A DNA stretch of 64,000 nt from an uncultured Chloroflexia bacterium (GTDB lineage: Bacteria > Chloroflexota > Limnocylindria > Limnocylindrales > CSP1-4): contig OY970218.1 of the NCBI GenBank assembly GCA_963713975.1, positions 537,451-601,450 on the forward strand; not shown here. The letters are read 5' to 3'. The text below is the continuation of a report on this DNA, generated by a model with database tools.

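Follow-up and report, generated by a model that had tools for sequence, protein, structure and literature searches.

Genes possibly linked to the island, and distant homologs

Protein Y is probably a member of the island. In 30 Limnocylindria loci the island is followed by its gene, and in three rearranged loci (L025, L029 and L035) the gene for protein Y comes immediately downstream of that for the SIS protein. The gene is expected just past position 64000 of the window in the genome studied here. The C-terminus of the protein has a concanavalin-A-like Laminin_G_3 match, inspection by eye revealed apparent beta-propeller-type repeats, and no obvious signal peptide was found.

In two loci of type II (L031 and L044), we identified a luciferase-like oxidoreductase gene before that for the SBP. 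For the L044 copy, the best-scoring models are those of F420-dependent, LLM-class proteins.

Genomic contexts of the distant ceramidase-like homologs are quite different, and their contigs have GC contents of 55% (L082) and 42% (L083). Evidently, the short ceramidase fold is in use well outside the proposed island pathway. Natural fusions of the ceramidase-like protein are listed in the table.

Locations of features in the window and in related loci
Feature	Location	Remarks
Luciferase-like oxidoreductase	L031:2425-3399; L044:2332-3315	upstream of SBP gene
Luciferase-like gene	window 32879-34153	14 kb upstream of island, non-adjacent
Second NagB-like paralog	L019:16119-17135	
PfkB kinase	L019:17132-18214	
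6-Phosphogluconate dehydrogenase	L031:13547-14566; L086:10495-11277	NAD-dependent, decarboxylating; TIGR00872, above cut-off
Cgl0159-like protein, IolB-family 5-deoxyglucuronate isomerase, FGGY kinase	L084:2-3099	adjoining type I cluster
Distant ceramidase-like homologs	L082:9875-11317; L083:10001-12343	about 30% identical
Ceramidase-like + NagB-like fusion (P0129/P0130)	L042:10001-12067	688 aa, natural
Ceramidase-like + cupin 1 fusion (P0132)	L043:10001-11749	582 aa, natural
Protein Y	L001:18935-20605; L030:18674-20680; L014:18905-20503	~550 aa, conserved
Large ORF	window 3993-7424	1143 aa
Large ORF	window 9278-10987	569 aa
MsiK-type ABC ATPase	window 16894-17949	TOBE domain
Permease	window 17970-18827	separate sugar cluster
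GH2 hydrolase	window 22766-25180	minus
ROK kinase	window 25095-26072	minus
RpiR/SIS regulator	window 26076-26966	minus

Lower pathway and exit

At L019, a second NagB-like paralog and the PfkB kinase gene overlap, the stop codon of the former with the start of the latter. This arrangement suggests that the kinase phosphorylates the product of the NagB-like deaminase or a close derivative. This paralog, present in one Limnocylindria subclade, has the same AAAASQ motif as the first. In L031 and L086, which differ in cluster type, the gene for 6-phosphogluconate dehydrogenase is located directly 3' of that for the SDR; this hints at an exit via gluconate/6-phosphogluconate, either replacing KDG or added to it. 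The genes at L084 may belong to an alternative lower pathway, or to an inositol module that is unrelated; the IolB-family isomerase scores 247 bits (cut-off 205) and the XylB-like FGGY kinase falls below its cut-off.

Other genes in the window

Coding statistics are good for the two large ORFs, and neither has a significant match in Pfam.

A second, distinct sugar-utilisation cluster (16894-26966) has a lower GC content (0.63-0.66). Its MsiK-type ATPase could energise the island ABC importer, which lacks an ATPase. The pairing of GH2 and ROK genes is like that of chitosan/glucosamine clusters.
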